A stretch of DNA of 64,000 bases from Myxococcota bacterium (GCA_041687695.1 JAWLBL010000024.1:13047-77046), one strand, 5' to 3'; positions 1 to 15,984 are shown, counted from the stretch's first letter. Numbers and translations: made by a program. Notes: generated by a model from the sequence alone, not told the origin.

Positions 1-492
1 CTGGCCTCCCAGTTCGACACCGTGGTCATCGCGTACAACAGCTTCCAGCTCCTCCACTCGCTGTCCGATCAGGAGGCCTGCCTCCGGCGCATCCGGGAGC
101 ACCTCGTCCCGGGCGGGCGGCTCCTCTTCGAGGTCACCCCCTTCCTCCTCCGCGATCCGCCATCGGACTGGTCGCATCGTGCCACCGCCCATTTGCACGC
201 GGATCCGACGATCGCGGGCGACGGGACCGTCGTGTCCGCCTGGGAACGATGCCGCACCCGCCCCTCTGCCCAACTCAACCACTTCGACGTCCGCTACGAG
301 CTCTTCGGGACCGACGGGACGCGCCTGGAGCTGCATCACACCCTCACTCTGCGCACGATCTTTCGTTTCGAACTCGAGTTGTTGCTGACGGCCTGTGGCT
401 TCGCGGTCGAGCGGATCGACGGCGATTACGACGGCACACCCCTCGAAGCATGCGAAGACGAAGGGATGGTCGTCTCCGCGCGCACCACCTGA
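1..492 (+). CDS. Class I SAM-dependent methyltransferase, 5'-truncated by the window edge
   Basis: Frame open from base 1. FDTVVIAYNSFQLL...CLRRIREHLVPGGRLLFE and ELELLLTACGF are typical class I MTase motifs. Confidence 0.8.
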   Translation: MASQFDTVVIAYNSFQLLHSLSDQEACLRRIREHLVPGGRLLFEVTPFLLRDPPSDWSHRATAHLHADPTIAGDGTVVSAWERCRTRPSAQLNHFDVRYELFGTDGTRLELHHTLTLRTIFRFELELLLTACGFAVERIDGDYDGTPLEACEDEGMVVSARTT

Positions 493-502
493 GGGCCTGC
501 GC

Positions 503-2152
503 GTGTGTGGCTTCGCGGGGGTCCTGGGAGAGCCGGCCGAGGACGCTGCCTCGGTGTGGCGCACCCTGGAGCGCCGCGGTGTGCCCGACGGGAGTTGGAC
601 CTGCGGTCGCTTTCGAGGCTGGCAGTCCCGGCTCGCCATCGTGGCGCCCGAGGAGGGGCGCCTCCCGGTTTCGTGGACCCTGTCGCCCGACCACCACATC
701 GTCCTTTTTGGAGCCGGCCAGATCCACAACCATCTCGCCCTTCGGCGCCTGCTGTCAGCCGCCGACCGCGCGCGCGCCCCCAGCAGCGATCTGGCCCTGG
801 TGGGGCTCCTGTGGGCCCGGTTCGGCTTGCAGGGGCTCCGGCTGCTCCGGGGGCCCTATTCGGCGGCCATCTGGGAGCAGCGGGAGGGTCGACGGCGCCT
901 GTGGCTGTGCCGCGACCGTCTGGGACGTCGTCCTCTGTTCGTCGCGCGATCGCCTGGTCGCCTCGCCTTCGCGACGAGCATCGCGACCCTGAAGTGTCTC
1001 CACCCCGTCGGAGCTCCCTGTCCAGACCGTGTCCTGCAGTTTCTGGGCGCTGGCACCACCTGCGCCGATGGTGCCGTTCACCGCGACATCGAGAGCGTGC
1101 CGCCCGGGGGCGTCTGGGGCTTCGACCTCGACGGAGGCTGCGTCATGCAGGCCCGGCTCCCCCCTCCCGCGCTCACGGGGCTGCCCCTCGGAGCGGTGCT
1201 CGCGGCCGCGATGGAGCGCATTCGCCTCGCCGACACGCCCCCAGTCCTGGCGCTGTCGGGTGGCGTGGACTCCTCCTGGATGGCCCTCCGTCTGGCGCGA
1301 CACGGGCCCGTGAACGCCATCACCTTGGTGCGCCCGGGCGTCTCGGATCCAGCATCGTCGCGGTCGGCGCAGGTGGCACGGACACTGGGGCTCCGGAGCG
1401 CCGTCGTGTCCTGGGAGCCTCCTCCGGCCGCTCGGGCGCTCGCCTGCCTCTCCGAGCGCGTGGATCGTCCCGCCTCCACCCCGGCCGTTCTACACAATGA
1501 CGCGCTGCACGCAGCCGTCCCTGGCCGCCTGCTCCTCGGCGGTCACGGCGCGGACGAGGTCCTGGGCGGCTACGGCCGCTACGTCGCCTTCGCCACCGGC
1601 CAGCCTCCGGCGTGGTCGCGAGCCGAGCTGGCCTTGCGTGTGTGCCCCGAGTTCGTGCGCGGCCGGAGAGCGCTCGCAGACTGGATCGCCGCCTCCTCGT
1701 CTTCCGAGCGCCTCGCGCGCTGGTGGGACCTGACCCTCTTGCAGGCTTGGGACAACTTCCACCTGCCCGACGAAAATGGCCTCCACCACGGAGTGGAGGT
1801 CCGGTCTCCGTTCCTGGACCTGGACGTGGTGCGAAGCGGACTGTCGGAGCCGACCTCACACAAGGAGGTCCTGCGCGCCGAGCTCCGCAGCGTGCTCCCC
1901 TCCGAGCTCGTCGACGCTCCCAAGTCGGGGTTCGACACCCCGTTCGACTATGCGGCGTGGCTCATCAGCGAGTGGCCGGATCTTCGACGCGCCTGGCTCG
2001 GTTCAGAAGCCGAGACACTCGTCCCGCGCCATCTGCGCGCCCTGCTGCAGGACGCCGAGGCGCCGCGCTTGGCGCCTCTCCTTGCATGGCGCGCCGTGGC
2101 GCTGAGCGCGCACCTTCAGAGCCATCGACGCCCCCAGATCCTCGGCCAGTGA
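503..2152 (+). CDS. Asparagine synthetase B-like amidotransferase (divergent; family includes lasso cyclases)
   Basis: GTG at 503 gives the Ntn N-terminus MCGFAGV. Also RDRLGRRPLF, ATP-PPase loop [27 protein letters not shown] and PKSGF. Confidence 0.85.
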   Translation: MCGFAGVLGEPAEDAASVWRTLERRGVPDGSWTCGRFRGWQSRLAIVAPEEGRLPVSWTLSPDHHIVLFGAGQIHNHLALRRLLSAADRARAPSSDLALVGLLWARFGLQGLRLLRGPYSAAIWEQREGRRRLWLCRDRLGRRPLFVARSPGRLAFATSIATLKCLHPVGAPCPDRVLQFLGAGTTCADGAVHRDIESVPPGGVWGFDLDGGCVMQARLPPPALTGLPLGAVLAAAMERIRLADTPPVLALSGGVDSSWMALRLARHGPVNAITLVRPGVSDPASSRSAQVARTLGLRSAVVSWEPPPAARALACLSERVDRPASTPAVLHNDALHAAVPGRLLLGGHGADEVLGGYGRYVAFATGQPPAWSRAELALRVCPEFVRGRRALADWIAASSSSERLARWWDLTLLQAWDNFHLPDENGLHHGVEVRSPFLDLDVVRSGLSEPTSHKEVLRAELRSVLPSELVDAPKSGFDTPFDYAAWLISEWPDLRRAWLGSEAETLVPRHLRALLQDAEAPRLAPLLAWRAVALSAHLQSHRRPQILGQ

Positions 2153-3192
2153 TCGCCGAGATCATTGGGTCCCAGATCCGCACCGGGCAGCGGCTCGGCC
2201 ATGGCCTCTACGTGGGCCGCCAGGGGGGCTGATAGGGGCACCCCGAGCGAGGGCAGGCGACGCAAGACGTAAGCGGCACCGGCGGACAAGCCGAGCTCGA
2301 TGACGATCTCCAGGGCGCGGGCGTGTTCGGCAGGGGAGGCGGTCGCGACCAGCGCGGCTACGTCGGCGCATTGATGCGCGCCTCGCCCGAAGCGCTGCAC
2401 ACCCTCCCAGTAGAGCTTGTAGACGGCCAGCGCGATCGACCAGCTTCGGTCGGCCAGGCAGAGGCCGTCGAGGCGGACCGCGTCGCGCAGCAGGCGCCGC
2501 GTGGACACGGCGGGGTTGATTCCGTGGTGCGCGTCCACCACGAGGAAGAGGACGGCGCGGCCCGATCGGACCGTCCAGGGGAGGCTGCAAACGGCCGCGA
2601 CTCGGCTCACGAGATCGACGGACACGCGCTGAGGCGAGAGCTCCACGGGGCGGACCAGGTAGCCGAGCTCGTAGTGCTCGGCCTCGACCAGGCGCCGACG
2701 CTCGAGATCGGGGCGCACGAACTCGCGCATCCGGGGGTTCCAGTCCGCGGCGCTGTAGCCGGCTTCCAAGAGCAGGCGCTCGGCCCGTTCGAGCTCTTCG
2801 GGCCAAACGGCGAGATCGAGATCCCGACCCACGCGGCGCAGGCCCGTCCAGCGCCGCACGGCGCTCCCCTTCATCCAGGCGTGTCGGATCCCTTCTTCGT
2901 CGAGGCGCGCTCCGAGGCGGCCGAGCTCGTCGTCCTGCAAGCGGGCCGTCAGCTCGGCAAGGTCCGCCAGATCACGGGCCAGGCGGAGCTGTGGCCGCTC
3001 CCCATCACATCGGTCCGAGGAGGGGCCGAGCAGATGGGGCGCGACCTGCCAGAGCTCGATGGCCAGACGGTCGAGGCCGCTGGGGACGCCATCGCCGCGG
3101 CTCTCGGCGCGAGGTCCGAGCCAGGGCGCGAGGTCGACTAGCGCCGCGAGGCTGCGACGTCCGGCGTCGTCATTCACGGCCTGATGCGTCAC
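2116..3192 (-). CDS. Nucleotidyltransferase family protein (NTP_transf_5-like)
   Basis: WMKGSAV...RRVGRDLDLAV (KG...R...DxD) followed by LLLEAGY and VDAHH. Start is uncertain (GTG 3192 or 3177). Confidence 0.7.
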   Translation of the reverse strand: MTHQAVNDDAGRRSLAALVDLAPWLGPRAESRGDGVPSGLDRLAIELWQVAPHLLGPSSDRCDGERPQLRLARDLADLAELTARLQDDELGRLGARLDEEGIRHAWMKGSAVRRWTGLRRVGRDLDLAVWPEELERAERLLLEAGYSAADWNPRMREFVRPDLERRRLVEAEHYELGYLVRPVELSPQRVSVDLVSRVAAVCSLPWTVRSGRAVLFLVVDAHHGINPAVSTRRLLRDAVRLDGLCLADRSWSIALAVYKLYWEGVQRFGRGAHQCADVAALVATASPAEHARALEIVIELGLSAGAAYVLRRLPSLGVPLSAPLAAHVEAMAEPLPGADLGPNDLGDHWPRIWGRRWL

Positions 3193-3727
3193 TCGAGGGC
3201 GACCGGACCCGACCAGACACGGGGCCCTCGGTCGTCACAGGGCGGAGCGCGTCGACCCGAGCGGACACGGGCCCGTCGGTCGCGACCACACCCGACACCG
3301 GAATGGGCGAGGCCGACAGCGGGCCGAGGTGTCGGACCAGGGCCGCCGCGACGGCCTCGACGTCCGCGTCCGTGAGGGTCCGGTTGCCGCGGAGGACGGG
3401 AGTGCCGGGCGAGGCGGCGGCCACCGAAGGAATGGGAGAGGCCGAGACGGCCGGGATCGGGGAAGCCGAGACCATGGGGGTAGGCGAGGCCGACAAGCCG
3501 CCGCGGCCAAAGCGCCGAGCGGGCGCGGTGCGCCCCGTGCTCAGCCGGCTGGCGACGAGATCGGCCAGGATCTCGAGCTGGCTCCGGCGGGACATGCCGA
3601 GCCTGCGTGCGACGGCGCTGGCGACATGATCGGCCAGGAAGTCCATGTCTGGGGACTTGGGAGTGGGCGAGGCGCTGCTCTCAGCGAGGGCGAGACGGAG
3701 GAGCTCCTGGAGGTCACGACGAGGCAT
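3170..3727 (-). CDS. Repeat-containing small protein, candidate multi-core peptide precursor
   Basis: ATG 3727 is preceded by AAGGA and the gene overlaps both neighbours. It has five SASP(I/T)P motifs, three amphipathic helical segments and two T(D/E)GPVS(A/G)RV motifs. Confidence 0.7.
   Translation of the reverse strand: MPRRDLQELLRLALAESSASPTPKSPDMDFLADHVASAVARRLGMSRRSQLEILADLVASRLSTGRTAPARRFGRGGLSASPTPMVSASPIPAVSASPIPSVAAASPGTPVLRGNRTLTDADVEAVAAALVRHLGPLSASPIPVSGVVATDGPVSARVDALRPVTTEGPVSGRVRSPSSDASGRE
3428..3499 (-). repeat. Three tandem 24-bp units encoding xxSASP(I/T)P
   Basis: Units 3428-3451, 3452-3475 and 3476-3499 differ mainly at synonymous positions. Confidence 0.85.
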
Positions 3728-4847
3728 GGCGAGTCCTTGTGTCGGTGAGGGTGGCGTTTCGGACGATGAGTTCGGCAACCGAGTCCTGGCCCGGCTCCGT
3801 CCAGCGATGCCGGACGAAGGCGCCGAGGCCGGGAAGGGGGTCCTCCTGCGTCTTCAGCAGGCCCCGCAGCCTGTCTCCCAGGACGTCGGAGTAGGGCCCC
3901 AGGCAGGCCCGCAGCGCGGCCTCGACGGCCGCGACGCCGATCGCTTCGGGGAGCCCGGCAGGGATCCGAAGCGAGGGATGGATGGCGCTCAAGGGAACCA
4001 GGCAGCCGGGCGGGAGCACGTCGCGGTAGCGCTCGAGGATGAGGGCCTGGCTGTAGTTCTGCGGCGGTAGGAAGCGCGGAGGGACGCCCATGGACAGGGC
4101 CTCCACGGTCGTGGTGATCCCAGGGGCCGTGATGAGCCGCTCGCAGCGGGCGAGGCGTCTGACGAACTCGTCGTGCGGCAGATGCCCGATCTGCACGTTC
4201 GGGTAGTCGTCGCGCAAGGCCGCGCTGAGCGCCGCGTTCGTGCAGACGAGGACGGAGCCGTAGCGGGTCGTCGCTTCGGGCAACAACGCCTCGAGCACGA
4301 GACGCGCATAGCGCAGGTAGAGATCACCATGCACGAAGGGGTTGGCCAACCCCGACAGGTTGATGAGCAGCTCCCCGGACCGCGGGCCTCGGGCGACACC
4401 CTGGGCGGCATCGATCGGAGGCACCGCCCGCCGATTGCTGCCGAACTCGACCTCGCGGTCGAGGAGGAAGTCCTGGACGAATACAGCCTGGGCGTTGTCG
4501 ATGCCGGGGGGCGGCGCGTGCCACATCCAGTCGAGGCTGTCCACGACGTACAACGGCGGATCGACGACCGGGTTCCAGTCGGCGGCGACCGACATGTTGA
4601 GGACGCTGACCACTGCGGTCGCATCGGCCGCGGTACGGCGTAGTCGCGCCCGGCCCAGGTCGGTGTCCACCGCCAGCTCGTGAATCTCGTCGAAGACGTG
4701 GGCGCGTCGTGCAAAATCGAGGGCGATGCCGTCACCGTAGAACGCCAGGACGGCTTCGTGACATCGGCGCTGCAGGGCCCGTGCGATGGTCACCGCCTTC
4801 GACACGGGACCGAAGCCGAACGATGTGGACAGAAACACGAACCTCAT
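3714..4847 (-). CDS. GT-B glycosyltransferase resembling cytosylglucuronate (CGA) synthase, BlsD/MilC-like
   Basis: Motifs FGFGPVSK, VDSLDWMW, LINLSGL, LPHDEF, TAPGITT and LPPQNYSQ match my recollection of the CGA synthase family. Confidence 0.65.
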   Translation of the reverse strand: MRFVFLSTSFGFGPVSKAVTIARALQRRCHEAVLAFYGDGIALDFARRAHVFDEIHELAVDTDLGRARLRRTAADATAVVSVLNMSVAADWNPVVDPPLYVVDSLDWMWHAPPPGIDNAQAVFVQDFLLDREVEFGSNRRAVPPIDAAQGVARGPRSGELLINLSGLANPFVHGDLYLRYARLVLEALLPEATTRYGSVLVCTNAALSAALRDDYPNVQIGHLPHDEFVRRLARCERLITAPGITTTVEALSMGVPPRFLPPQNYSQALILERYRDVLPPGCLVPLSAIHPSLRIPAGLPEAIGVAAVEAALRACLGPYSDVLGDRLRGLLKTQEDPLPGLGAFVRHRWTEPGQDSVAELIVRNATLTDTRTRHASS

Positions 4848-8994: not shown

Positions 8995-10563
8995 TCAGGC
9001 TCCTCGTGAGGTGAGCGGACGCTGGGCCAGCCACGCCTGCGTGCCGCCGCACAGCGAGCGCACGGAGGCGAAGCCGAGCTCGCGCAGGAGCGCGGCGCCC
9101 TGCTCGGAGCGGCCGCCGCCTTTGCCGCAGGCGGTGACCAGCAGCGCGTCCGTGGACAGCTCGGCGGCTCGGTCGGCCAGCACGTCGAGGGGGATGTTCA
9201 GCGCGCCGTCCACGTGCGCCTCGGCGTACTCGTCGCGAGACCGCACGTCGATGATGACCGCCCCCGGCAACCGCGCGAGCGCCTCGGGCTCGATGCAGCT
9301 CGCGCCCGCCTTCGCAGGCTCCGATGGCTCCTTGCGCCGCAGCGTCTCGCGCATGCGCACGGCGACCACCACGCCCGACGCGAAGGTCAGCGCGGCGATG
9401 GTGAGCGTGGCGGCCGAGAGCCCGAAGGCGTCGGCCACCATGCCCGCCAGGAGCGCCCCGACGGCGTAGCCCATGTCTCGCCAAAGGCGATAGACGCCGA
9501 CGGACGAGGCCCGCCAGCTCGGGTGGGCGACGTCGCCGATCGCCGCGAGCAGGGTCGGGTAGACCATCGCGGTCCCGAGCCCGAGCAGCACCGCGCCGGT
9601 CGCGAACACCGCGAAGCTCGAGCCCAGCGCGATGACCACGATGCCCGCCGCCTGCGTCCACATGCCGGCGACGATCAGCCCCTTGCGGCCGACGCGATCG
9701 GACCACGCCCCGGTCACGAGCTGGGCGAGCCCCCAGACGGCCGGGTAGATGGCCGCGAGCGTGCCGATCTCGGCGAGCGACACATTCGCGGCGGCGAACA
9801 CGAGCGGGAACAGCCCCCAGGCCATGCCGTCGTTGAGGTTGTTGACCATGCCCGCCTGGCTCACCGACGACAGGTCGGGGTCGGTGAAGCTGGTGCGGGC
9901 GATGACCTCGCGCTGCGAGAGGGTGTCGTGCGCCGCCGTGCCCGCGAGCTTCGACTCGTGGTCGACGTGGTGCAGCGTCTCCTTGACCGCGAAGACCGAG
10001 AGCAGCGTGCCGAGGGCCACGAAGCCGACGCCGAGGTAGAAGGGCTGGGGCCGCAGGCCGACCTCGGCCGCGATGAAGCCCGTCGCCAAGGCCGACAGCG
10101 CGACCGCGAAGTAGCCGGCGAACTCGTTGAGACCCATGGCCAGGCCGCGGTTCTTCGGGCCGGCGAGGTCGATCTTCATGATGACCGTCGTCGACCAGGT
10201 GAGCCCCTGGCTGACGCCGAGCAGCACGTTGGCCGCGAGGATCCAGGTCCATGACGGCGCCCACATCAAGAGGAACGGCACCGGCGCGGCGACGAGCCAG
10301 CCGGCGACGAGGACGTGCTTGCGCCCGAAGCGATTGGACCACCGACCGGCGAAGTAGTTGGTCAGCGCCTTGGTGACGCCGAAGACGACGATGAACGAGA
10401 GGATCGCGGTGCGTGCGGCGAGCTGGAACTCGTCCTCGGCGATGGCGGGCAGGATGCTGCGCTCCATGCCGACCACGGCGCCGACGAAGGCGTTGACGAG
10501 GACGAGCAACGAAAACTGAGCCCAGTTCTCGCGCAGACCGAGTTGGATGGCGGGCCTGCTCAT
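8995..10563 (-). CDS. MFS transporter with a C-terminal rhodanese domain
   Basis: Multiple TM helices with SNRFGRK and SDRVGRK motifs. C-terminal IIDVRSRDEYAEAHVDGALNIP...CGKGGGRS...LCGGTQAW. Confidence 0.9.
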   Translation of the reverse strand: MSRPAIQLGLRENWAQFSLLVLVNAFVGAVVGMERSILPAIAEDEFQLAARTAILSFIVVFGVTKALTNYFAGRWSNRFGRKHVLVAGWLVAAPVPFLLMWAPSWTWILAANVLLGVSQGLTWSTTVIMKIDLAGPKNRGLAMGLNEFAGYFAVALSALATGFIAAEVGLRPQPFYLGVGFVALGTLLSVFAVKETLHHVDHESKLAGTAAHDTLSQREVIARTSFTDPDLSSVSQAGMVNNLNDGMAWGLFPLVFAAANVSLAEIGTLAAIYPAVWGLAQLVTGAWSDRVGRKGLIVAGMWTQAAGIVVIALGSSFAVFATGAVLLGLGTAMVYPTLLAAIGDVAHPSWRASSVGVYRLWRDMGYAVGALLAGMVADAFGLSAATLTIAALTFASGVVVAVRMRETLRRKEPSEPAKAGASCIEPEALARLPGAVIIDVRSRDEYAEAHVDGALNIPLDVLADRAAELSTDALLVTACGKGGGRSEQGAALLRELGFASVRSLCGGTQAWLAQRPLTSRGA

Positions 10564-11222
10564 GTGAGGCCTCCTGCGGCATCGAGCGTGTGGACGGACA
10601 CATCGCTGCGGCGCGCGTCGAAGCCGAGCTCGCGCAGCCGCCGGACGGCCTCGGCCGACAGCGTGCAGAACGGACCCCGGCAGTAGGCGACGATGGTTCG
10701 GTCCCGCGGGAGCTCGCCGAGCCGCGACTCCAGCAGCGGCAGCGGCACCGAGAGCGCGCCGGGCAGGTGCCCTTCGGCGAACTCTCGTTCGGGGCGCACG
10801 TCGAGCAGCGTCACGTCGCGGGCGTGCAGGCGCTCGAGCAGCGTGTCCCGGTCGAGCGGCTCGAGGCCAGCGGGGTCATCGAAGAACTCCCGGGTCAGCT
10901 TCTCGAGCCCTGCGATGTGCTGGGCCGCGACGTCCTGGAGGTGCACGAGCAGCTCGGCGACGTCGCTGCCGGCGAGCGAGTAGACGACGTGGAGGCCGTC
11001 GCGCTCGGTGGAGACGAGCTGGGCGCGCTTGAGCGCCTGCAGGTGGTGCGAGGTGTTCGCCACCGACTGATCGATCTCGCCGGCGAGCACCTCCACCGTC
11101 CGCGGCGCCTGGGCGAGCAGCTCCAAAATCTCGAGCCGCGCCGGGCTCGACAGCGCCTTTCCGACCTCGGCGAGGTGGGCGTAGGCGGCGTTCTTGAAGG
11201 TTCGGGACCTGGACTTCGACAC
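10560..11222 (-). CDS. ArsR/SmtB family regulator fused to a rhodanese domain
   Basis: KALSSPARLEILELL...TSHHLQAL HTH, then LLDVRPEREFAEGHLPGA and YCRGPFC. Confidence 0.92.
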   Translation of the reverse strand: MSKSRSRTFKNAAYAHLAEVGKALSSPARLEILELLAQAPRTVEVLAGEIDQSVANTSHHLQALKRAQLVSTERDGLHVVYSLAGSDVAELLVHLQDVAAQHIAGLEKLTREFFDDPAGLEPLDRDTLLERLHARDVTLLDVRPEREFAEGHLPGALSVPLPLLESRLGELPRDRTIVAYCRGPFCTLSAEAVRRLRELGFDARRSDVSVHTLDAAGGLT

Positions 11223-11262: not shown

Positions 11263-11400
11263 ATACGGCCCATGACGGAGCAAGTCAAGGCGCGGACGCG
11301 ACTCCGCAACGCCAGCGTGGGAGCGCGAGGGCCGACGAGAGCACCACGGCCGCTCGTCGCCGACGCTGCGTCGCGCGAAAGCACCGAAAAATCGGGCATG

Positions 11401-11532
11401 AAACGACGAGAGTCCCCGGGGTGACCGCCGAGGCTCTCTGTAGACCGCCCACCGTCGATGACTCGCGGTGGGGTAAGACGGCTCAAATGGGGCCTGGCTT
11501 GCCCGACGCATGAGTGCCCCGCGGGACTACAG
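11401..11532. repeat. att-like junction 1 (arm X - GGCTC - arm Y)
   Basis: 11401-11484 matches 15828-15914, and 11480-11532 matches 12188-12240. Confidence 0.85.
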
Positions 11533-11647
11533 CTGGCGCCGTGAACCCTTGGAACCGCGAACTTCGCCGGCCGTCCGAGGGCCTGCGTCGACCCGTGGGG
11601 CGTGTCCGTCGTCATCGAAGCGGGCGGCTGCGACGAAACCGCCGAGG

Positions 11648-11950
11648 TCACCCGCGCAGCGCCGCGACCCACTCGCGGATCGTCGCGCAGGCTTCGTCGA
11701 GCGGGATGCGTGGGCCCCAGAACACCGGCGCGATCTTCGCCTAGGCCCGTGCGACGCTAGCGCGCTTGTCCGGGTCGTCGAGCACCAGCGACGGGTCGTC
11801 GGCGCTCGGCAGGGCGGCGATGCCCTTGTCTGCGAACATGTCCTCGGCCAGGGCGAGGGTGGAGGTCTCGGTCGGGGGGAGCCGGTCGAGCGCCTGGATG
11901 ATCCGGGCGGCGTCCTCGTAGTGACACACGAAGGCGTCCGCCTCGACCAC
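11648..11950 (-). pseudogene. C-terminal gene remnant with an internal stop, possibly an AbiEii-like nucleotidyltransferase
   Basis: AFVCHYEDAARII...KRASVARA*AKIAPVFWGPRIPLDEACATIREWVAALRG*. The 5' end is replaced by repeat arm Z. Family assignment is from memory. Confidence 0.5.
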
Positions 11951-12192
11951 GGCTCGGGTCGCTGGCCCGAGCCCGACATTCGGACCAGAAATGCAGGAAG
12001 GCCCACCCCCTGGTGGGGGCGGCCTTCCTGGTCTCTGGCTCCGGCGGTTGGACTCGAACCGACACCTGCCTCGCGTGCGCTCGGTCGGACGCCCGCTTCG
12101 CGGGCTCGGGTCGCTGGCCCGAGCCCGACATCCGGGCCAGAAATGCAAGAAGGCCACCCCCTGGCGGGGGCGGCCTTCTTGGTTTCTGGCTC
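11951..12192. repeat. Two direct copies of a ~90-bp arm Z (11951-12041, 12103-12192), each ending in TGGCTC
   Basis: About 7 differences over ~90 bp. Each copy contains a GC-rich terminator-like hairpin. Confidence 0.9.
12036..12060 (-). repeat. Duplicated 3' end of tRNA-Asn (att remnant)
   Basis: tggctccggcggttggactcgaacc versus tggctccggctgttggactcgaacc at 15909-15933 (24/25 identical). Confidence 0.9.
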
Positions 12193-12379
12193 AAATAGGG
12201 CCTACCTTGCCGGACGCATGAGTGCCCCGTTGGTTTACAGGGCGGCCGCGTAAGTCGCTGGAATCACGCGACTCCATCTCGCCCGTCCGCGACGCCCGCC
12301 GGCGTGTGGCTCGTGCCCATCGCCGTCACTCCGGGAGGCTACGGCGAACCGCAGGGCCTGAACCCTCATGATGAACCAC

Positions 12380-12412
12380 TTGCAAAAGGTTACGCGTCGC
12401 GTTACTTTTTGC
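12380..12412 (+). promoter_or_regulatory. Sigma70-type promoter overlapped by an inverted repeat (probable AbiEi operator)
   Basis: TTGCAA-N17-TACTTT, inside the imperfect palindrome gcaaaaggttacgcgtcgcgttactttttgc. Confidence 0.6.
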
Positions 12413-12425
12413 GCGAGGTTCAGCG

Positions 12426-13220
12426 ATGGCGAGTCCCGGCACCCTACATGAGTGGATCGAGGCGCTCCCCGAGGAGGGGAGGTACGTCTTCGCGCGTCCG
12501 GACGTCGACGCGGTGACCGATGCCTCCGCCGCGGCCATCAAGATGACGCTCTACCGGCTGAAGCAGAGCGGCGCCATCGTCACGCCGAGGCGAGACTTCT
12601 TCGTCGTGGTGCCGCGGGAGTACCGCGCGGCCGGCTGCCCGCCGGCGACCTGGTTCATCGACGACCTCATGCGTCACATGGGCCGGCGCTACTACGTCGG
12701 GCTGCTGACCGCGGCTGCGCTCCACGGGGCGGGGCATCAGCAGCCCATGGCCTTCCAGGTGATGGTGGACTCGGCCGAGCGCGACATCGAGGTGGGGCGC
12801 GTCCGCATCGACTTCCACATGAGCAGCGTCTTCGATGGCGCGGCAACGCAGCCCATGCAGACCGAGACCGGCACGATGCAGGTCGCGACGCCCGAGACGA
12901 CCGCCTTCGATCTCGTGCGCTTCCCAGCCGCGGCGGGGTACTGGAGCAACATCGCGACGGTCCTCGCCGAACTCGCGGAGAAGCTCGACCCCGAGGCGCT
13001 CGCCGCCGGCGCCGCGCGCATGGCGAGGACGGACGTGCAGCGCCTCGGCTGGCTCCTCGACTTCGTGGAGCAGCCGGACCTCGCGGGCGCCCTCGCCGCC
13101 ACGGTTGAGGGTAAGCGCCTGCTGCCGACCCCGCTCACGGGGGCCCGCGAGTCGGCCGACGCCCCCCTCGACCCCCGCTGGCACGTGCTGGTCAACGACG
13201 ACGTGGAGCCCGACCTGTGA
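12426..13220 (+). CDS. Type IV toxin-antitoxin antitoxin, AbiEi family
   Basis: N-terminal wHTH, YYVGLLTAAALHGAGHQQP and VATPETTAFDL. Coupled to the downstream toxin. Confidence 0.9.
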   Translation: MASPGTLHEWIEALPEEGRYVFARPDVDAVTDASAAAIKMTLYRLKQSGAIVTPRRDFFVVVPREYRAAGCPPATWFIDDLMRHMGRRYYVGLLTAAALHGAGHQQPMAFQVMVDSAERDIEVGRVRIDFHMSSVFDGAATQPMQTETGTMQVATPETTAFDLVRFPAAAGYWSNIATVLAELAEKLDPEALAAGAARMARTDVQRLGWLLDFVEQPDLAGALAATVEGKRLLPTPLTGARESADAPLDPRWHVLVNDDVEPDL

Positions 13221-14041
13221 TCCCGAGAGCGAGCATCACCGCGTGGCGCAAGGCCGCGCCCTGGCCCGACAACACCCAGGTCGAGCAGGACCTCGTGCTC
13301 TCCCGCGCGCTCGTCGAGCTCTTCCGCCGCCCAGCGTTCGCAGAGGGCGCCGTGTTCCGCGGCGGCACCGCGCTGCACAAGCTCTTCTTCGAACCGCCCG
13401 GTCGCTACTCCGAAGACATCGATCTGGTGCAGCGCACGGCGGGGCCGATCGGCCCGCTCGTCGGCGAGATCCGCGCCGCGCTCGACCCCTGGCTCGGCAC
13501 GCCCAAATGGAAGGCCGGTCAGGGCCGCTTCACCCTCTACTACCGCTTCGACACGACCTTCACGCCCGTCGTGCAGATGCGCGTGAAGATCGAGATCAAC
13601 ACACGCGAGCACTTCGCCGTCCACGGCTACGCCACGGAGCGGGTGGAGGTCGCGAACCCCTGGTTCTCGGGGCACGCCGACGTGGCGACCTTCAGCCTGC
13701 CCGAGCTCCTCGGGACCAAGCTGCGCGCGCTCTACCAGCGCAAGAAGGGGCGCGATCTCTTCGACCTCGACCTCGCGCTGGACCACCCCGCGTTCGACGG
13801 CGACCGTCTGCTCGCGGCCTTCGAACAGTACATGGCGTTCGGCGGCACGCCGGTGACCCGCGCGCAGTTCGAGGCGAACATGGCGGCGAAGCTCACCGAC
13901 CCGGCGTTCCTCACCGACGTGCCCCCGCTCTTGAGGACGGGCCTCGAGCATGACGCCGCCGCGGCATGGGCGCGCGTCCACGCGGCGCTCGTCAGCCGTC
14001 TCCCCGGCGATCCGTGGAAGGGGGACGGCGATGCGCGCTGA
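13217..14041 (+). CDS. Type IV toxin-antitoxin toxin, AbiEii nucleotidyltransferase
   Basis: QVEQDL, FRGGTALHKL, RYSEDIDL, KIEINTREH and KLRALYQRKKGRDLFDL. Confidence 0.93.
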   Translation: MIPRASITAWRKAAPWPDNTQVEQDLVLSRALVELFRRPAFAEGAVFRGGTALHKLFFEPPGRYSEDIDLVQRTAGPIGPLVGEIRAALDPWLGTPKWKAGQGRFTLYYRFDTTFTPVVQMRVKIEINTREHFAVHGYATERVEVANPWFSGHADVATFSLPELLGTKLRALYQRKKGRDLFDLDLALDHPAFDGDRLLAAFEQYMAFGGTPVTRAQFEANMAAKLTDPAFLTDVPPLLRTGLEHDAAAAWARVHAALVSRLPGDPWKGDGDAR

Positions 14042-14102
14042 CGTGCGAGCCGGCCGCCTTCGCCGGCGTCCCTTCATCATCCGCTGACGCGCGAGGTCGA
14101 CG

Positions 14103-15440
14103 ATGTTCACCTCGCGTGGTCAACCCGTTCTCCGTTGCGCCATCTACACCCGCCAGTCGGTCGCGCGCGGCGAGCAGGACCTGACCTCGTGCGACGTGCA
14201 GCGCGAGCGCTGCGAGGACTACGTGCGGGCCATGCAGTACGAGGGCTGGGTCGCCCTCGACGAGCGCTTCGACGACCTCGGTGTGAGCGGCGGCAGCCTC
14301 GAGCGGCCCGCGCTGCGGCGCCTGCTCTCGTGGTGTGCGCAGGGTCGGGTCGACGTCGTGGTGGTCACGAGCCTCGACCGGCTCGCCCGCAAGATGTCCG
14401 ACTGGGTGCGGCTCAACGACTGGCTGAAGCAGGCCAGCGTCGAGCTGGTGATCTTGCAGGGCGCCGGCGGGGCACGTGGGCCGCTCGCCGAACTCGTGAA
14501 CAACGTGGTAGCGAGCCTGGCCGAGTTCGAGCGCGACATCATCCGCGAGCGGCTGCGCGAGGCGAAAGGGCGGGCTCGCGCTCGCGGGCGTCGTGCCGCC
14601 GGACGCGTGCCGCTCGGCTACCGGGCGGACCCGAACACGCGGCAGCTCGTCGTCGACGAGGACGAGGCTGCGCTGGTGCGGGCGTTCTTCGAGCGCTGCG
14701 CCGCCGGCGAGTCGGGCGCGGCGATCGCCGCTTGGGCGAACGCGGCGGGCCACCGAACCAAGGTCCATGGAGGCAAGGGCGGCGCGAAGTGGACGGGGCG
14801 CTCGGTGCTGCAGGTGGTCCGCAACCCGATCTACGTCGGCCGTCGCGCTCACGGAGAGGGCACGGTCGAGGGCGTGCACGAGGCGATCGTCGACGAGGAC
14901 CTCGCCCGGCGCGCCTTCGCGGCGCTCGACGCCCGGCGCACGCGCGAGCCGTCGCCTCGGTCGAAGACGCCGCAGTGGGACCAGGACCCGTGGATGCTGC
15001 GCGCGCTGCTGCGCTGCACCGGCTGCGGGCGCGTGATGACGACGACGGCCTCGGCGGCGGTCACGATGGAGAACGCCGACGAGGTCCCGCGCTACTACCG
15101 CTGCCGAGGGGACGCCGCGCGCCCGGCTTGCACACCGCCGGTGCAGGTCGCCGCGCGCCACGTCGAGGCGCGGGTGCTGACCGTGCTTCGCGAGGCGCAC
15201 ATCTCCTGGTTCCGCGACGACCGCTCGCGCGGCTTCCTCGAGGCCCTCGCGCCCGCGTGGGACACGTGGCAGCGCGACGACGTGGGCGCCCGCAACGCGA
15301 TGGTGCGCGGGCTCGTGTGGAGCGCCGAGTGGGATCGCGAGCTCGGGCTGACGAAGCTCGTGCTCGACGACATCACCGTCGACGCCTTCATTGACGAGGA
15401 CCCGGTGCTCGTCGAGACGCTCCCGGCCCGCGCCGAGTAG
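14103..15440 (+). CDS. Large serine recombinase (resolvase, recombinase and Zn-ribbon domains)
   Basis: AIYTRQS, DLGVSGGSLERPAL, LDRLAR, LAEFERDIIRER, PLGY, NPIYVG, HEAIVD and CTGCG...YYRC. Confidence 0.92.
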   Translation: MFTSRGQPVLRCAIYTRQSVARGEQDLTSCDVQRERCEDYVRAMQYEGWVALDERFDDLGVSGGSLERPALRRLLSWCAQGRVDVVVVTSLDRLARKMSDWVRLNDWLKQASVELVILQGAGGARGPLAELVNNVVASLAEFERDIIRERLREAKGRARARGRRAAGRVPLGYRADPNTRQLVVDEDEAALVRAFFERCAAGESGAAIAAWANAAGHRTKVHGGKGGAKWTGRSVLQVVRNPIYVGRRAHGEGTVEGVHEAIVDEDLARRAFAALDARRTREPSPRSKTPQWDQDPWMLRALLRCTGCGRVMTTTASAAVTMENADEVPRYYRCRGDAARPACTPPVQVAARHVEARVLTVLREAHISWFRDDRSRGFLEALAPAWDTWQRDDVGARNAMVRGLVWSAEWDRELGLTKLVLDDITVDAFIDEDPVLVETLPARAE

Positions 15441-15908
15441 GACGTCAGACGCTCAATGCACCGACGACGCGTCGGCACGAGAACCACGGTGCGCGTCTCC
15501 TGACGTCTCATCGCCGCTGCGTGCTCTCGACGCCGCCGAAAGGGGGAGGTGGATGCTATTCGCGCTCCGGGAGCTTGTGGCGAGTCGGCCGACGGAGACG
15601 CGCCCGCGCGCGCCGAAAAGCGCTGTCGGGATGTCCCACTCGCCGCTGTAAACCGGGTGCTCTTTGGTGTTAAGCGCCCGGACGCGTCTCCAGGTGTCTG
15701 CGGGCCCGTCGAGAGCCCGTTTCGATCCCTCGGCGGCGTCTCGCGAGGTGGCCGTGGCTCTGGTGCTCGTCCACGGCTCGCTCCGCCGTCGTCGCGGTAC
15801 CTCGCGCAAGCCCGCGTCAACAGGCCAAAAACGGCGAGAGCCCCGACGGCGTGACCGTCGAGGCTCTCTGTAAACCGCCCACCGTCGATGACTCGCGGTG
15901 GGGTAAAA

Positions 15909-15984
15909 TGGCTCCGGCTGTTGGACTCGAACCAACGACCTAGCGGTTAACAGCCGCTTGCTCTACCGACTGAGCTAAGCCGGA
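15909..15984 (-). tRNA. tRNA-Asn (GTT)
   Basis: TCCGGCTTAGCTCAGTCGGTAGAGCAAGCGGCTGTTAACCGCTAGGTCGTTGGTTCGAGTCCAACAGCCGGAGCCA: 76 nt, cloverleaf, encoded CCA. Confidence 0.97.

Follow-up and report, generated by a model that had tools for sequence, protein, structure and literature searches.

A divergent cytosylglucuronate-type gene cluster in a Myxococcota bacterium and a nucleotidyltransferase-repeat protein pair that may carry its nucleoside

Blasticidin S, mildiomycin and arginomycin have a common core, cytosylglucuronic acid (CGA), which BlsD/MilC make and BlsE/MilG process (PMC5572114, PMC3715490). In gougerotin biosynthesis, GouB amidates, the N-acetyltransferase GouJ transfers an acyl group and GouN methylates (PMC12835213). 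In fosfazinomycin biosynthesis, an ATP-grasp enzyme and a second kinase make a triphosphate-like phosphonate, which FzmU then joins to a scaffold peptide of ribosomal origin; an AsnB-like enzyme and a methyltransferase act earlier in the pathway. The authors of that work called FzmU the first nucleotidyltransferase (NTase) with a nucleoside triphosphate (NTP) surrogate (PMC13622209; 2026). In the pseudomycoidin system, an HprK kinase and the NTP transferase PsmN modify a peptide serine (PMC6993621). Here we describe a 15-gene cluster (C24:3460-17893) whose right end occupies positions 1-4847 of a 64,000-nucleotide stretch of DNA from a Myxococcota bacterium (hereafter the window; C24:13047-77046 of a 73% GC genome, the sole genome of its family in our sample). 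An earlier reading made from the window alone (the sequence-only reading) had placed two convergent, tightly coupled gene sets there, and all five genes, for a methyltransferase, an AsnB-like enzyme, an NTP_transf_5 NTase, a repeat protein and a glycosyltransferase (GT), were found on the strands it gave and as tightly coupled as it described (overlaps: GT/repeat gene 14 nt, repeat gene/NTase 8 nt, convergent AsnB/NTase 3' ends 37 nt). It had also expected the cluster to run on to the left of base 1; indeed, 10 further genes and the start of the methyltransferase gene lie there. By analogy, the gene content suggests that the cluster works like a CGA pathway joined to a fosfazinomycin-style scaffold ligation.

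The link to cytosine nucleosides, first drawn from the CGA-synthase likeness of the GT, was borne out by BlsM- and BlsE-like genes upstream, where a nucleoside pathway was found and not a polysaccharide or lipopolysaccharide (LPS) locus. All six PDB matches of the hydrolase were BlsM/MilB-type CMP hydrolases (best E 2.9e-14), with the GTHVELGWA motif aligned. The top structure matches of the radical SAM protein were BlsE (E 3.5e-50; next family 2e-8), it keeps CxxxCxMC, GGEP and the auxiliary Cys, and TIGR04466 reached 189 bits (cut-off 400) against 77 bits for the next model. The top model for the GT was the CGA synthase model TIGR04467, and the protein is 30% identical over 314 aa to an annotated Kitasatospora CGA synthase (E 4e-19); no solved structure relative of it was found by sequence. 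Two DegT genes (99 and 162 bits) each carry the Lys motif, and the complement also includes two GNATs, two methyltransferases and three kinase-type genes. Together, these homologies make it very likely that the core is a divergent CGA-type nucleoside pathway composed of relatives of the blasticidin/mildiomycin enzymes. Even without the idea of a carrier, the cluster stands as a divergent CGA-type cluster. The BlsE model also matched the Lactococcus lactis control genome, under cut-off.

Like the bls, mil, arginomycin and gou clusters, the window cluster combines a BlsM/MilB-like hydrolase, a BlsD/MilC-like GT, a BlsE/MilG-like radical SAM enzyme and DegT. Because gougerotin biosynthesis includes methylation as well as amidation, by a GouB that we take to be AsnB-like, neither the methyltransferase nor the AsnB-like enzyme calls for an explanation of its own. 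BlsE is said to have been reassigned as a dehydratase in later work. The type of reaction matters because a decarboxylated sugar would offer the AsnB-like enzyme no carboxyl, and BlsE has been described as a decarboxylase (PMC3715490). Unlike the CGA clusters, the window cluster scores below the family cut-offs, carries its GT on the strand opposite the remaining core, and adds a second DegT, three kinase-type genes, an NTP_transf_5 gene and a repeat protein. Searches by tblastn with Kitasatospora and Paenibacillus proteins as queries gave no match at E 1e-3 in C24:1-31000 to BlsF, BlsI-type ATP-grasp ligases, BlsK or the MFS exporters of CGA clusters.

The opinion of the sequence-only reading that this mix fits no class could not be upheld. 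The core is a cytosylglucuronate pathway, and gougerotin likewise has an enzyme for amidation alongside a GNAT and a methyltransferase (PMC12835213). Fosfazinomycin (FzmA, H, F, K, T, U, Z; PMC13622209) offers a precedent for an AsnB-like enzyme clustered with a SAM methyltransferase, two kinases (one of ATP-grasp fold), an NTase and a ribosomal scaffold peptide. The predicted proteins of the window cluster appear to retain the corresponding features, namely the Asp triad of the NTase and the kinase motifs. The two systems differ in that the fosfazinomycin payload is a phosphonate whereas the window cluster has a nucleoside core, and in that the fosfazinomycin payload is attached at the C-terminal hydrazide of a 22-residue YxxP peptide, with RRE domains, in contrast to a 185-residue multi-repeat protein with no Tyr. 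Neither a short precursor nor a nearby RRE of the fosfazinomycin kind was found: four gaps scanned held no short ORF with a ribosome-binding site, and C24 has no PqqD. In microcin C-type systems, a ribosomal peptide reportedly bears a nucleotide as a Trojan horse, placed on a C-terminal Asn by a ThiF-family adenylase; no such adenylase is among the 15 cluster genes. By feature tests on the predicted proteins, the cluster is outside the blasticidin, lasso and fosfazinomycin families, and our literature search, judged mostly by title and the start of the abstract, returned no description of a nucleoside cluster that pairs an NTP_transf_5 enzyme with a helical repeat protein.

The repeat gene is a real gene. 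It has a Shine-Dalgarno-like AAGGA, its GC content at third codon positions (GC3) is 0.83, like that of the adjoining genes, and its product has two distant homologues, P0002 (60% identity) and P0007 (34%). The protein begins with an N-terminal helix followed by amphipathic helix repeats at residues 31-44, 50-63 and 122-135, e.g. LADHVASAVARRLG, of the form D-x-(L/V/I)-A-x-x-V-A-x-R-L (VASAVARRL-like). All three family members retain the N-terminal helix and carry between three and five amphipathic helices of 14 residues. The Ser/Pro repeat from which the gene had been recognized is real as well, as a SASP(I/T)P-like unit in disordered linkers with 6 copies in the window protein and 6 in P0002, and is mostly lost in P0007; across the alignment the conserved unit is thus the 14-residue helix and not only the Ser/Pro repeat. 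Tandem Repeats Finder did not find a DNA array in the gene. At the nucleotide level, two helix repeats do repeat each other (21/23 nt, 69 nt apart). A predicted model (pLDDT 46, too poor for a fold search) has four helices with the remainder disordered. Among the 11 representative matches, the protein itself included, P0007 was kept and nine were dropped as long or unrelated low-complexity; five non-self sequences were read. No further family members were found in metagenome contigs, the 5.8-billion protein set (3-sequence profile), the Atlas or plasmids (P0007 query). Among 401 genomes of the phylum, the only match besides the window's own (in G183; E 6.6e-5) is weak, has an internal stop and was not accepted.

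The adjoining NTase keeps KGS, D119-x-D121 and D215, and the Asp triad is invariant in 7/7 aligned proteins. Its Atlas clusters are all PF14907 at 0.95-0.96, and its predicted model (pLDDT 71) matches nucleotidyltransferase folds, the nearest solved ones being MenT1 (E 2e-5, TM 0.42 of query, 18% identity) and ANT(2'')-Ia. Close relatives are rare. The 5.8-billion protein set returned only the protein itself, and tblastn against 72,556 plasmids gave only two near-identical Bradyrhizobium records (33.7% identity, E 6e-30), whose NTases are identical to each other. In a tree of 40 PF14907 proteins, a partial sample of the family, the window and Bradyrhizobium NTases are sisters with support 100/99; its other rows come from the 30 phylum loci with the best scores, from G407 (two), from the window's own genome (two paralogues) and from plasmids (four relatives). 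No further clade member was found in the other genomes of the order (0/17), in another phylum (0/401 genomes) or in viral contigs and phages, and the single match among 400 genomes of the phylum was a generic PF14907 member. The HprK-like and PPDK-like proteins had no plasmid match.

The Bradyrhizobium NTase (WP_166106876.1) sits in a second nucleoside setting (Table 1), accompanied by QueD, FolE, QueE, IMPDH-like, PRTase, UbiD and UbiX genes, which by annotation is the TubA-F complement of tubercidin (PMC6112128). A more recent report (10.64898/2026.04.15.718813) agrees on this gene set, and its text mentions neither Bradyrhizobium nor nucleotidyl transfer. Unlike the tub cluster, the Bradyrhizobium stretch has no annotated Nudix hydrolase (TubG) or MFS exporter (TubI); present there instead are a thymidylate-kinase-like gene and three short ORFs for basic proteins (133, 218 and 99 aa), located at L014:17087, 17609 and 19322. 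All three ORFs have a Shine-Dalgarno-like site and two are unannotated in the plasmid record. They precede the NTase gene, the 99-aa ORF abutting it and starting MPR like the window repeat protein, and they are composed of (I/V/M/L)-A-S-x-(V/I/L) helices, with 14 A-S-x-V matches in total.

Several scans placed the same motif at both loci. With a scoring matrix from the window family, none of 2,684 frames, drawn from 12 loci, scored above the three ORFs, whose two copies each filled ranks 1 to 6. A pattern-free model, with units cut from the window-family alignment, gave at least 2 matches in 2/5,911 plasmid frames (covering 400 of 456 kb of the Bradyrhizobium plasmid), both of them these ORFs; the third ORF ranked 4th, behind one unrelated frame. 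A whole-protein HMM likewise put the same two ORFs first, at E of about 0.002 and 0.005, both among 5,690 frames of 46 loci and among the 5,911. Both loci have the 9-mer VASAVARRL without a mismatch, and it turns up in 1/70,156 frames of the window genome. As a control, 35 generic PF14907 loci, 34 of them distinct because L020 overlaps L047, were scanned with flanks of about 1.5 kb and contained no frame with two motif matches. On these sequence comparisons, the motif is common to both loci and its place beside sister NTases is not chance. The likeness of the repeat proteins is that of a shared motif, and whole-length homology is not supported. The tie between repeat gene and NTase that the sequence-only reading had drawn is thus seen again in the Bradyrhizobium nucleoside cluster, and together these data point to a probable functional partnership of the NTase and the repeat protein.

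More distant NTases, 22-25% identical to the Bradyrhizobium or the B. japonicum enzyme, also occur in small-molecule settings. The B. japonicum p1S06B locus combines PEP-mutase-family, aconitase-like, PRTase and PRPP synthetase genes; a 74-aa ORF carrying one LASAVV immediately precedes its NTase. This locus (L021:508-14551, NZ_CP066352.1) also holds a dephospho-CoA-kinase-like gene and may encode a phosphonate nucleotide-analogue pathway. A phosphonate survey reports a family with a thymidylate kinase and PF14907 beside PEP mutase (10.1101/2021.04.07.438883). Three further relatives lie in small-molecule clusters of Rhizobium and Bacillus plasmids (L023:13347-17175, L024:4830-20069, L025:3953-14772): the R. 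leguminosarum NTase lies between a 138-aa ORF (upstream) and a thymidylate-kinase-like gene (downstream), that of Rhizobium CB3171 has a 132-aa ORF upstream together with HprK-like and radical-SAM-like genes (by eye), and the Bacillus locus has DegT-like, NUDIX, radical SAM and phosphotransferase genes with no small ORF seen. There was no motif match at these three loci. The window, Bradyrhizobium and four distant NTases do not form a single supported clade (two changes on the tree), and the kinase neighbours of the distant NTases are given as description only.

We propose that kinases activate the nucleoside and that the NTase loads it covalently onto the repeat protein, a reading drawn by analogy to which we give somewhat less than an even chance. 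From the homologies above, the BlsM-like hydrolase would release cytosine from CMP for the CGA-synthase-like GT to couple to a UDP-uronic acid; formation of the amino-sugar would fall to the BlsE-like radical SAM enzyme together with a DegT. The GNATs, methyltransferases and AsnB-like enzyme may then acylate, methylate and amidate the product, like GouJ, GouN and GouB. By analogy with FzmF/FzmK, the P-loop kinase, the HprK-like kinase and the PPDK ATP-grasp domain could convert a hydroxyl to a triphosphate-like form, from which the NTase would move the monophosphate form onto the repeat protein, several payloads per chain. Attachment would most likely be to serines of the A-S-x-V helices (S37 and S60 in the window protein), the SASP(I/T)P units being next in line, and the loaded chain would keep the payload protected for storage or delivery until proteolysis set it free. 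At both loci the genes expected at the end of a free-nucleoside pathway (for a ligase or phosphate removal, and an exporter) are replaced by kinases, an NTase and repeats, as the carrier model predicts.

More tentatively, the NTP_transf_5 clade and its multi-repeat helical carriers may be a portable two-gene module that is added to unrelated nucleotide-analogue pathways and loads many copies of the analogue on serines; the host pathways would be cytosylglucuronate here, 7-deazapurine in Bradyrhizobium and perhaps phosphonate-ribose in B. japonicum. That such a loaded protein represents a new class of multivalent conjugates between a nucleotide and a RiPP, a peptide made by the ribosome and modified afterwards, is a comparably speculative proposal. 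Nucleoside loading itself, if true, would be a new way of carrying such compounds, on a ribosomally made repeat protein. It would extend the use of NTP surrogates by NTases from phosphonate to nucleoside antibiotics, and their ligation from a C-terminal site to repeated internal sites. PF14907, a common yet nearly unstudied family, gains a concrete substrate hypothesis. Because two of the Bradyrhizobium repeat genes are unannotated, carriers may be missed in other orphan nucleoside clusters, and because the Bradyrhizobium payload is predictable (a tubercidin-type nucleotide) and the strains are cultured, the carrier idea is directly testable by mass spectrometry.

A number of observations weigh against nucleoside loading and the module. 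The recurrence of the enzymes with a repeat ORF, which the sequence-only reading had looked to, held for the Bradyrhizobium NTase pair and failed for the CGA core: an NTase or repeat ORF was found in 0/7 other CGA-type loci (L002, L003, L004, L011, L015, L016 and L017), within the stretches examined, which places the NTase-repeat module outside the CGA core as an add-on to nucleoside pathways. Both the GT (77 vs 300 bits) and the radical SAM protein (189 vs 400) score under their family cut-offs. The glucuronate nucleoside has no 5'-CH2OH, leaving the phosphorylation site as a gap in the mechanism. At a position of the third helix where both homologues carry Ser, the window protein has Ala, and an amphipathic helix fits binding as well as modification. 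P0002 and P0007 are on contigs of 1.1 and 1.7 kb without gene context, leaving only two independent lineages with such context. The repeat motif is short and Ala/Val-rich, and the comparison of whole proteins is weak: hhalign of the window against the Bradyrhizobium proteins gave 30% and 1% probability, phmmer from each Bradyrhizobium ORF singly did not list the window protein, phmmer from the window protein or P0002 did not find the Bradyrhizobium ORFs, and phmmer from P0007 ranked two of them 1st and 3rd without significance. A reciprocal PSSM ranked the window protein first of 57,992 short frames; this is partly circular because the pattern used to choose the units matches the window protein too. 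Finally, a small upstream ORF is present at 3/4 distant NTase loci, with a single A-S-x-V match in only one of them.

The main rival to nucleoside loading is a non-covalent partner. The repeat protein would bind the NTase as a scaffold, chaperone or antitoxin-like inhibitor and would not be its substrate, and the NTase would act on a small molecule, in ANT(2'')-like self-resistance, or would place the analogue on RNA, like MenT. This would account for the gene pairing equally well and is in keeping with amphipathic helices in a disordered chain, with MenT1 and ANT(2'')-Ia as the nearest folds of the NTase model, and with the basic character of all four repeat proteins (pI 11.3-12). Set against this, what the fold search matched is the generic nucleotidyltransferase fold, one position of the motif is repeatedly Ser, and three repeat genes with 14 A-S-x-V matches seem too many for an inhibitor. 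We consider a binding partner unlikely, though it deserves to be taken seriously.

Less probable still is modification of the repeat protein without a nucleoside, in which the HprK-like kinase would phosphorylate Ser and the NTase would add a sugar or an ordinary NMP to the phosphoserine, as with PsmK/PsmN on pseudomycoidin. The window cluster resembles the pseudomycoidin/paeninodin systems in pairing an HprK-like kinase with a DxD NTP transferase of uncharacterised type, the action of such a pair on a ribosomal-peptide Ser being established (PMC6993621), and the repeat protein is 14% Ser. HprK-like genes also lie, by eye, near two distant NTases (L024, L025). Unlike those systems, however, the window cluster has no lasso machinery (precursor, B1/RRE or B2) and its AsnB is of the amidotransferase type, and the Bradyrhizobium locus has no annotated HprK, with a nucleotide-kinase-like gene and a base-analogue pathway in its place.

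A similarly improbable reading is that of an ordinary free peptidyl-nucleoside cluster of the gougerotin/blasticidin kind, in which the NTase and repeat genes are passengers. The lack of both genes at the seven other CGA-type loci would be expected of passengers, PF14907 is common (179/301 phylum genomes), and a free nucleoside could be the product of the other 13 genes. The two genes are nevertheless in one same-strand overlapping run with the CGA-synthase-like gene and share the GC3 of the cluster, their sister NTase is likewise in a nucleoside cluster with the same repeats, and the exporter and BlsI-type ligase searches described above gave no match.

A surface polysaccharide/LPS or lasso peptide locus, a very remote prospect, would account for the DegT, GNAT, GT, AsnB and NTP_transf_5 families, all of which are found in such loci, and for NCBIfam side matches, but the hydrolase and radical SAM matches are BlsM-/BlsE-specific, flippase, polymerase and export genes are absent among the 15 genes, and the lasso link raised by the sequence-only reading fell away, as there is no PqqD/RRE (B1) on the contig (the genome's two PqqD genes, PF05402, are on contigs C11 and C12), no Pfam match to a B2 peptidase among the 15 genes, and an AsnB that retains its GATase domain with Cys and reaches 46.6 bits against a cut-off of 525 for the lasso cyclase model NF033535, in its GATase part only. 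Encapsulation peptides of a microcompartment were also considered and rejected: the 99% complete genome has 0 matches to PF00936 (BMC shell), a model that gave matches in 2/14 genomes as a control.

CGA-type loci elsewhere were collected by scanning genome contigs for the GT, which returned 5 loci, the best four near BlsE-like or other radical SAM genes. L002, L003 and L004 also carry relatives of the hydrolase, radical SAM and DegT genes; L005 has a radical SAM relative only, and L006 a weak partial GT match with DegT nearby. The first three are CGA-type clusters of Paenibacillus (L002:8763-17739), Anoxybacillus (L003:732-8347) and an Oligoflexia metagenome-assembled genome (L004:1708-11116). 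The Paenibacillus and Anoxybacillus clusters each have an ATP-grasp gene besides a GNAT of the Acetyltransf_6 type, and that of Oligoflexia has a kinase 30% identical to the P-loop kinase of the window cluster. The genome behind L002 has PF14907 genes away from its CGA locus. A second CGA-type cluster in the same phylum as the window (L011:11079-18217, G275) has DegT, BlsE-like (345 bits) and GT genes; the ORFs after these resemble, by eye, a carrier protein, a tRNA synthetase and an ABC-F protein.

Table 1. Genes at the right end of the cluster (window coordinates) and the Bradyrhizobium sister locus
Feature	Position	Strand	Remarks
Class I SAM methyltransferase MT2, 264 aa	-302..492 (start L001:12744)	+	11th operon gene; 1..492 is its 3' part
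AsnB-like amidotransferase / amide synthetase, 549 aa	503..2152	+	Asn_synthase 88.8 bits, GATase_7 64.8 bits
NTP_transf_5 (PF14907) nucleotidyltransferase, 353 aa	2116..3177	-	41.8 bits, cut-off 31.2
Repeat protein, 185 aa, pI 11.3	3170..3727	-	no Pfam or NCBIfam match
GT-B glycosyltransferase, distant CGA-synthase (BlsD/MilC) relative, 377 aa	3714..4847	-	TIGR04467 77 bits, cut-off 300
Tubercidin-type 7-deazapurine cluster next to integrase	L014:11038-21513 (NZ_CP145949.1; also NZ_CP096256.1)		Bradyrhizobium plasmids

The plus-strand run of the cluster (L001:3460-15198; operon start at window -9586) encodes, in order, the BlsM-like hydrolase of the nucleoside 2-deoxyribosyltransferase family, a GNAT (Acetyltransf_6), the BlsE-like radical SAM enzyme, two DegT proteins, a second GNAT, a methyltransferase, a stand-alone PPDK N-terminal (ATP-grasp) domain, an HprK-like kinase, a P-loop kinase-histidine phosphatase fusion, MT2 and the AsnB-like enzyme; the minus-strand run of GT, repeat gene and NTase faces it head-on. 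Matches of the PPDK-like protein stop at PPDK residue 341, leaving the N-terminal ATP-grasp domain only. The top NCBIfam model for MT2 is daptide_MTase (105 bits, cut-off 175). The start of the AsnB-like gene (GTG 503) was chosen by eye and yields an N-terminal Cys, which the protein keeps together with the PP-loop SGGVDS. It has AGQIHN at the position of SGETYN in its top PDB match, a hydroxyamidotransferase; the canonical motif there in AsnB-type enzymes is NGEIYN.

GC3 of the cluster genes is 0.79-0.88, against a genome median of 0.94 (3,041 long frames), which is consistent with acquisition from outside. The sequence-only reading had set the cluster beside a tRNA-Asn att array. The tRNA-Asn (15909-15984) and one partial copy (12036-12067) are indeed there, whereas no tRNA fragment was found at the left edge of the cluster, so a link to this att site is only putative. 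Direct repeats of 90-145 nt lie alongside the tRNA-Asn and its partial copy (window 11344-15984), together with a serine-recombinase-like ORF (14103-15440) and an AbiEi/AbiEii-like pair (12426-14041), both named by eye. At window 8995-11222, an MFS transporter-rhodanese-like fusion stands behind an ArsR-rhodanese regulator (by eye), and its link to the cluster is improbable.

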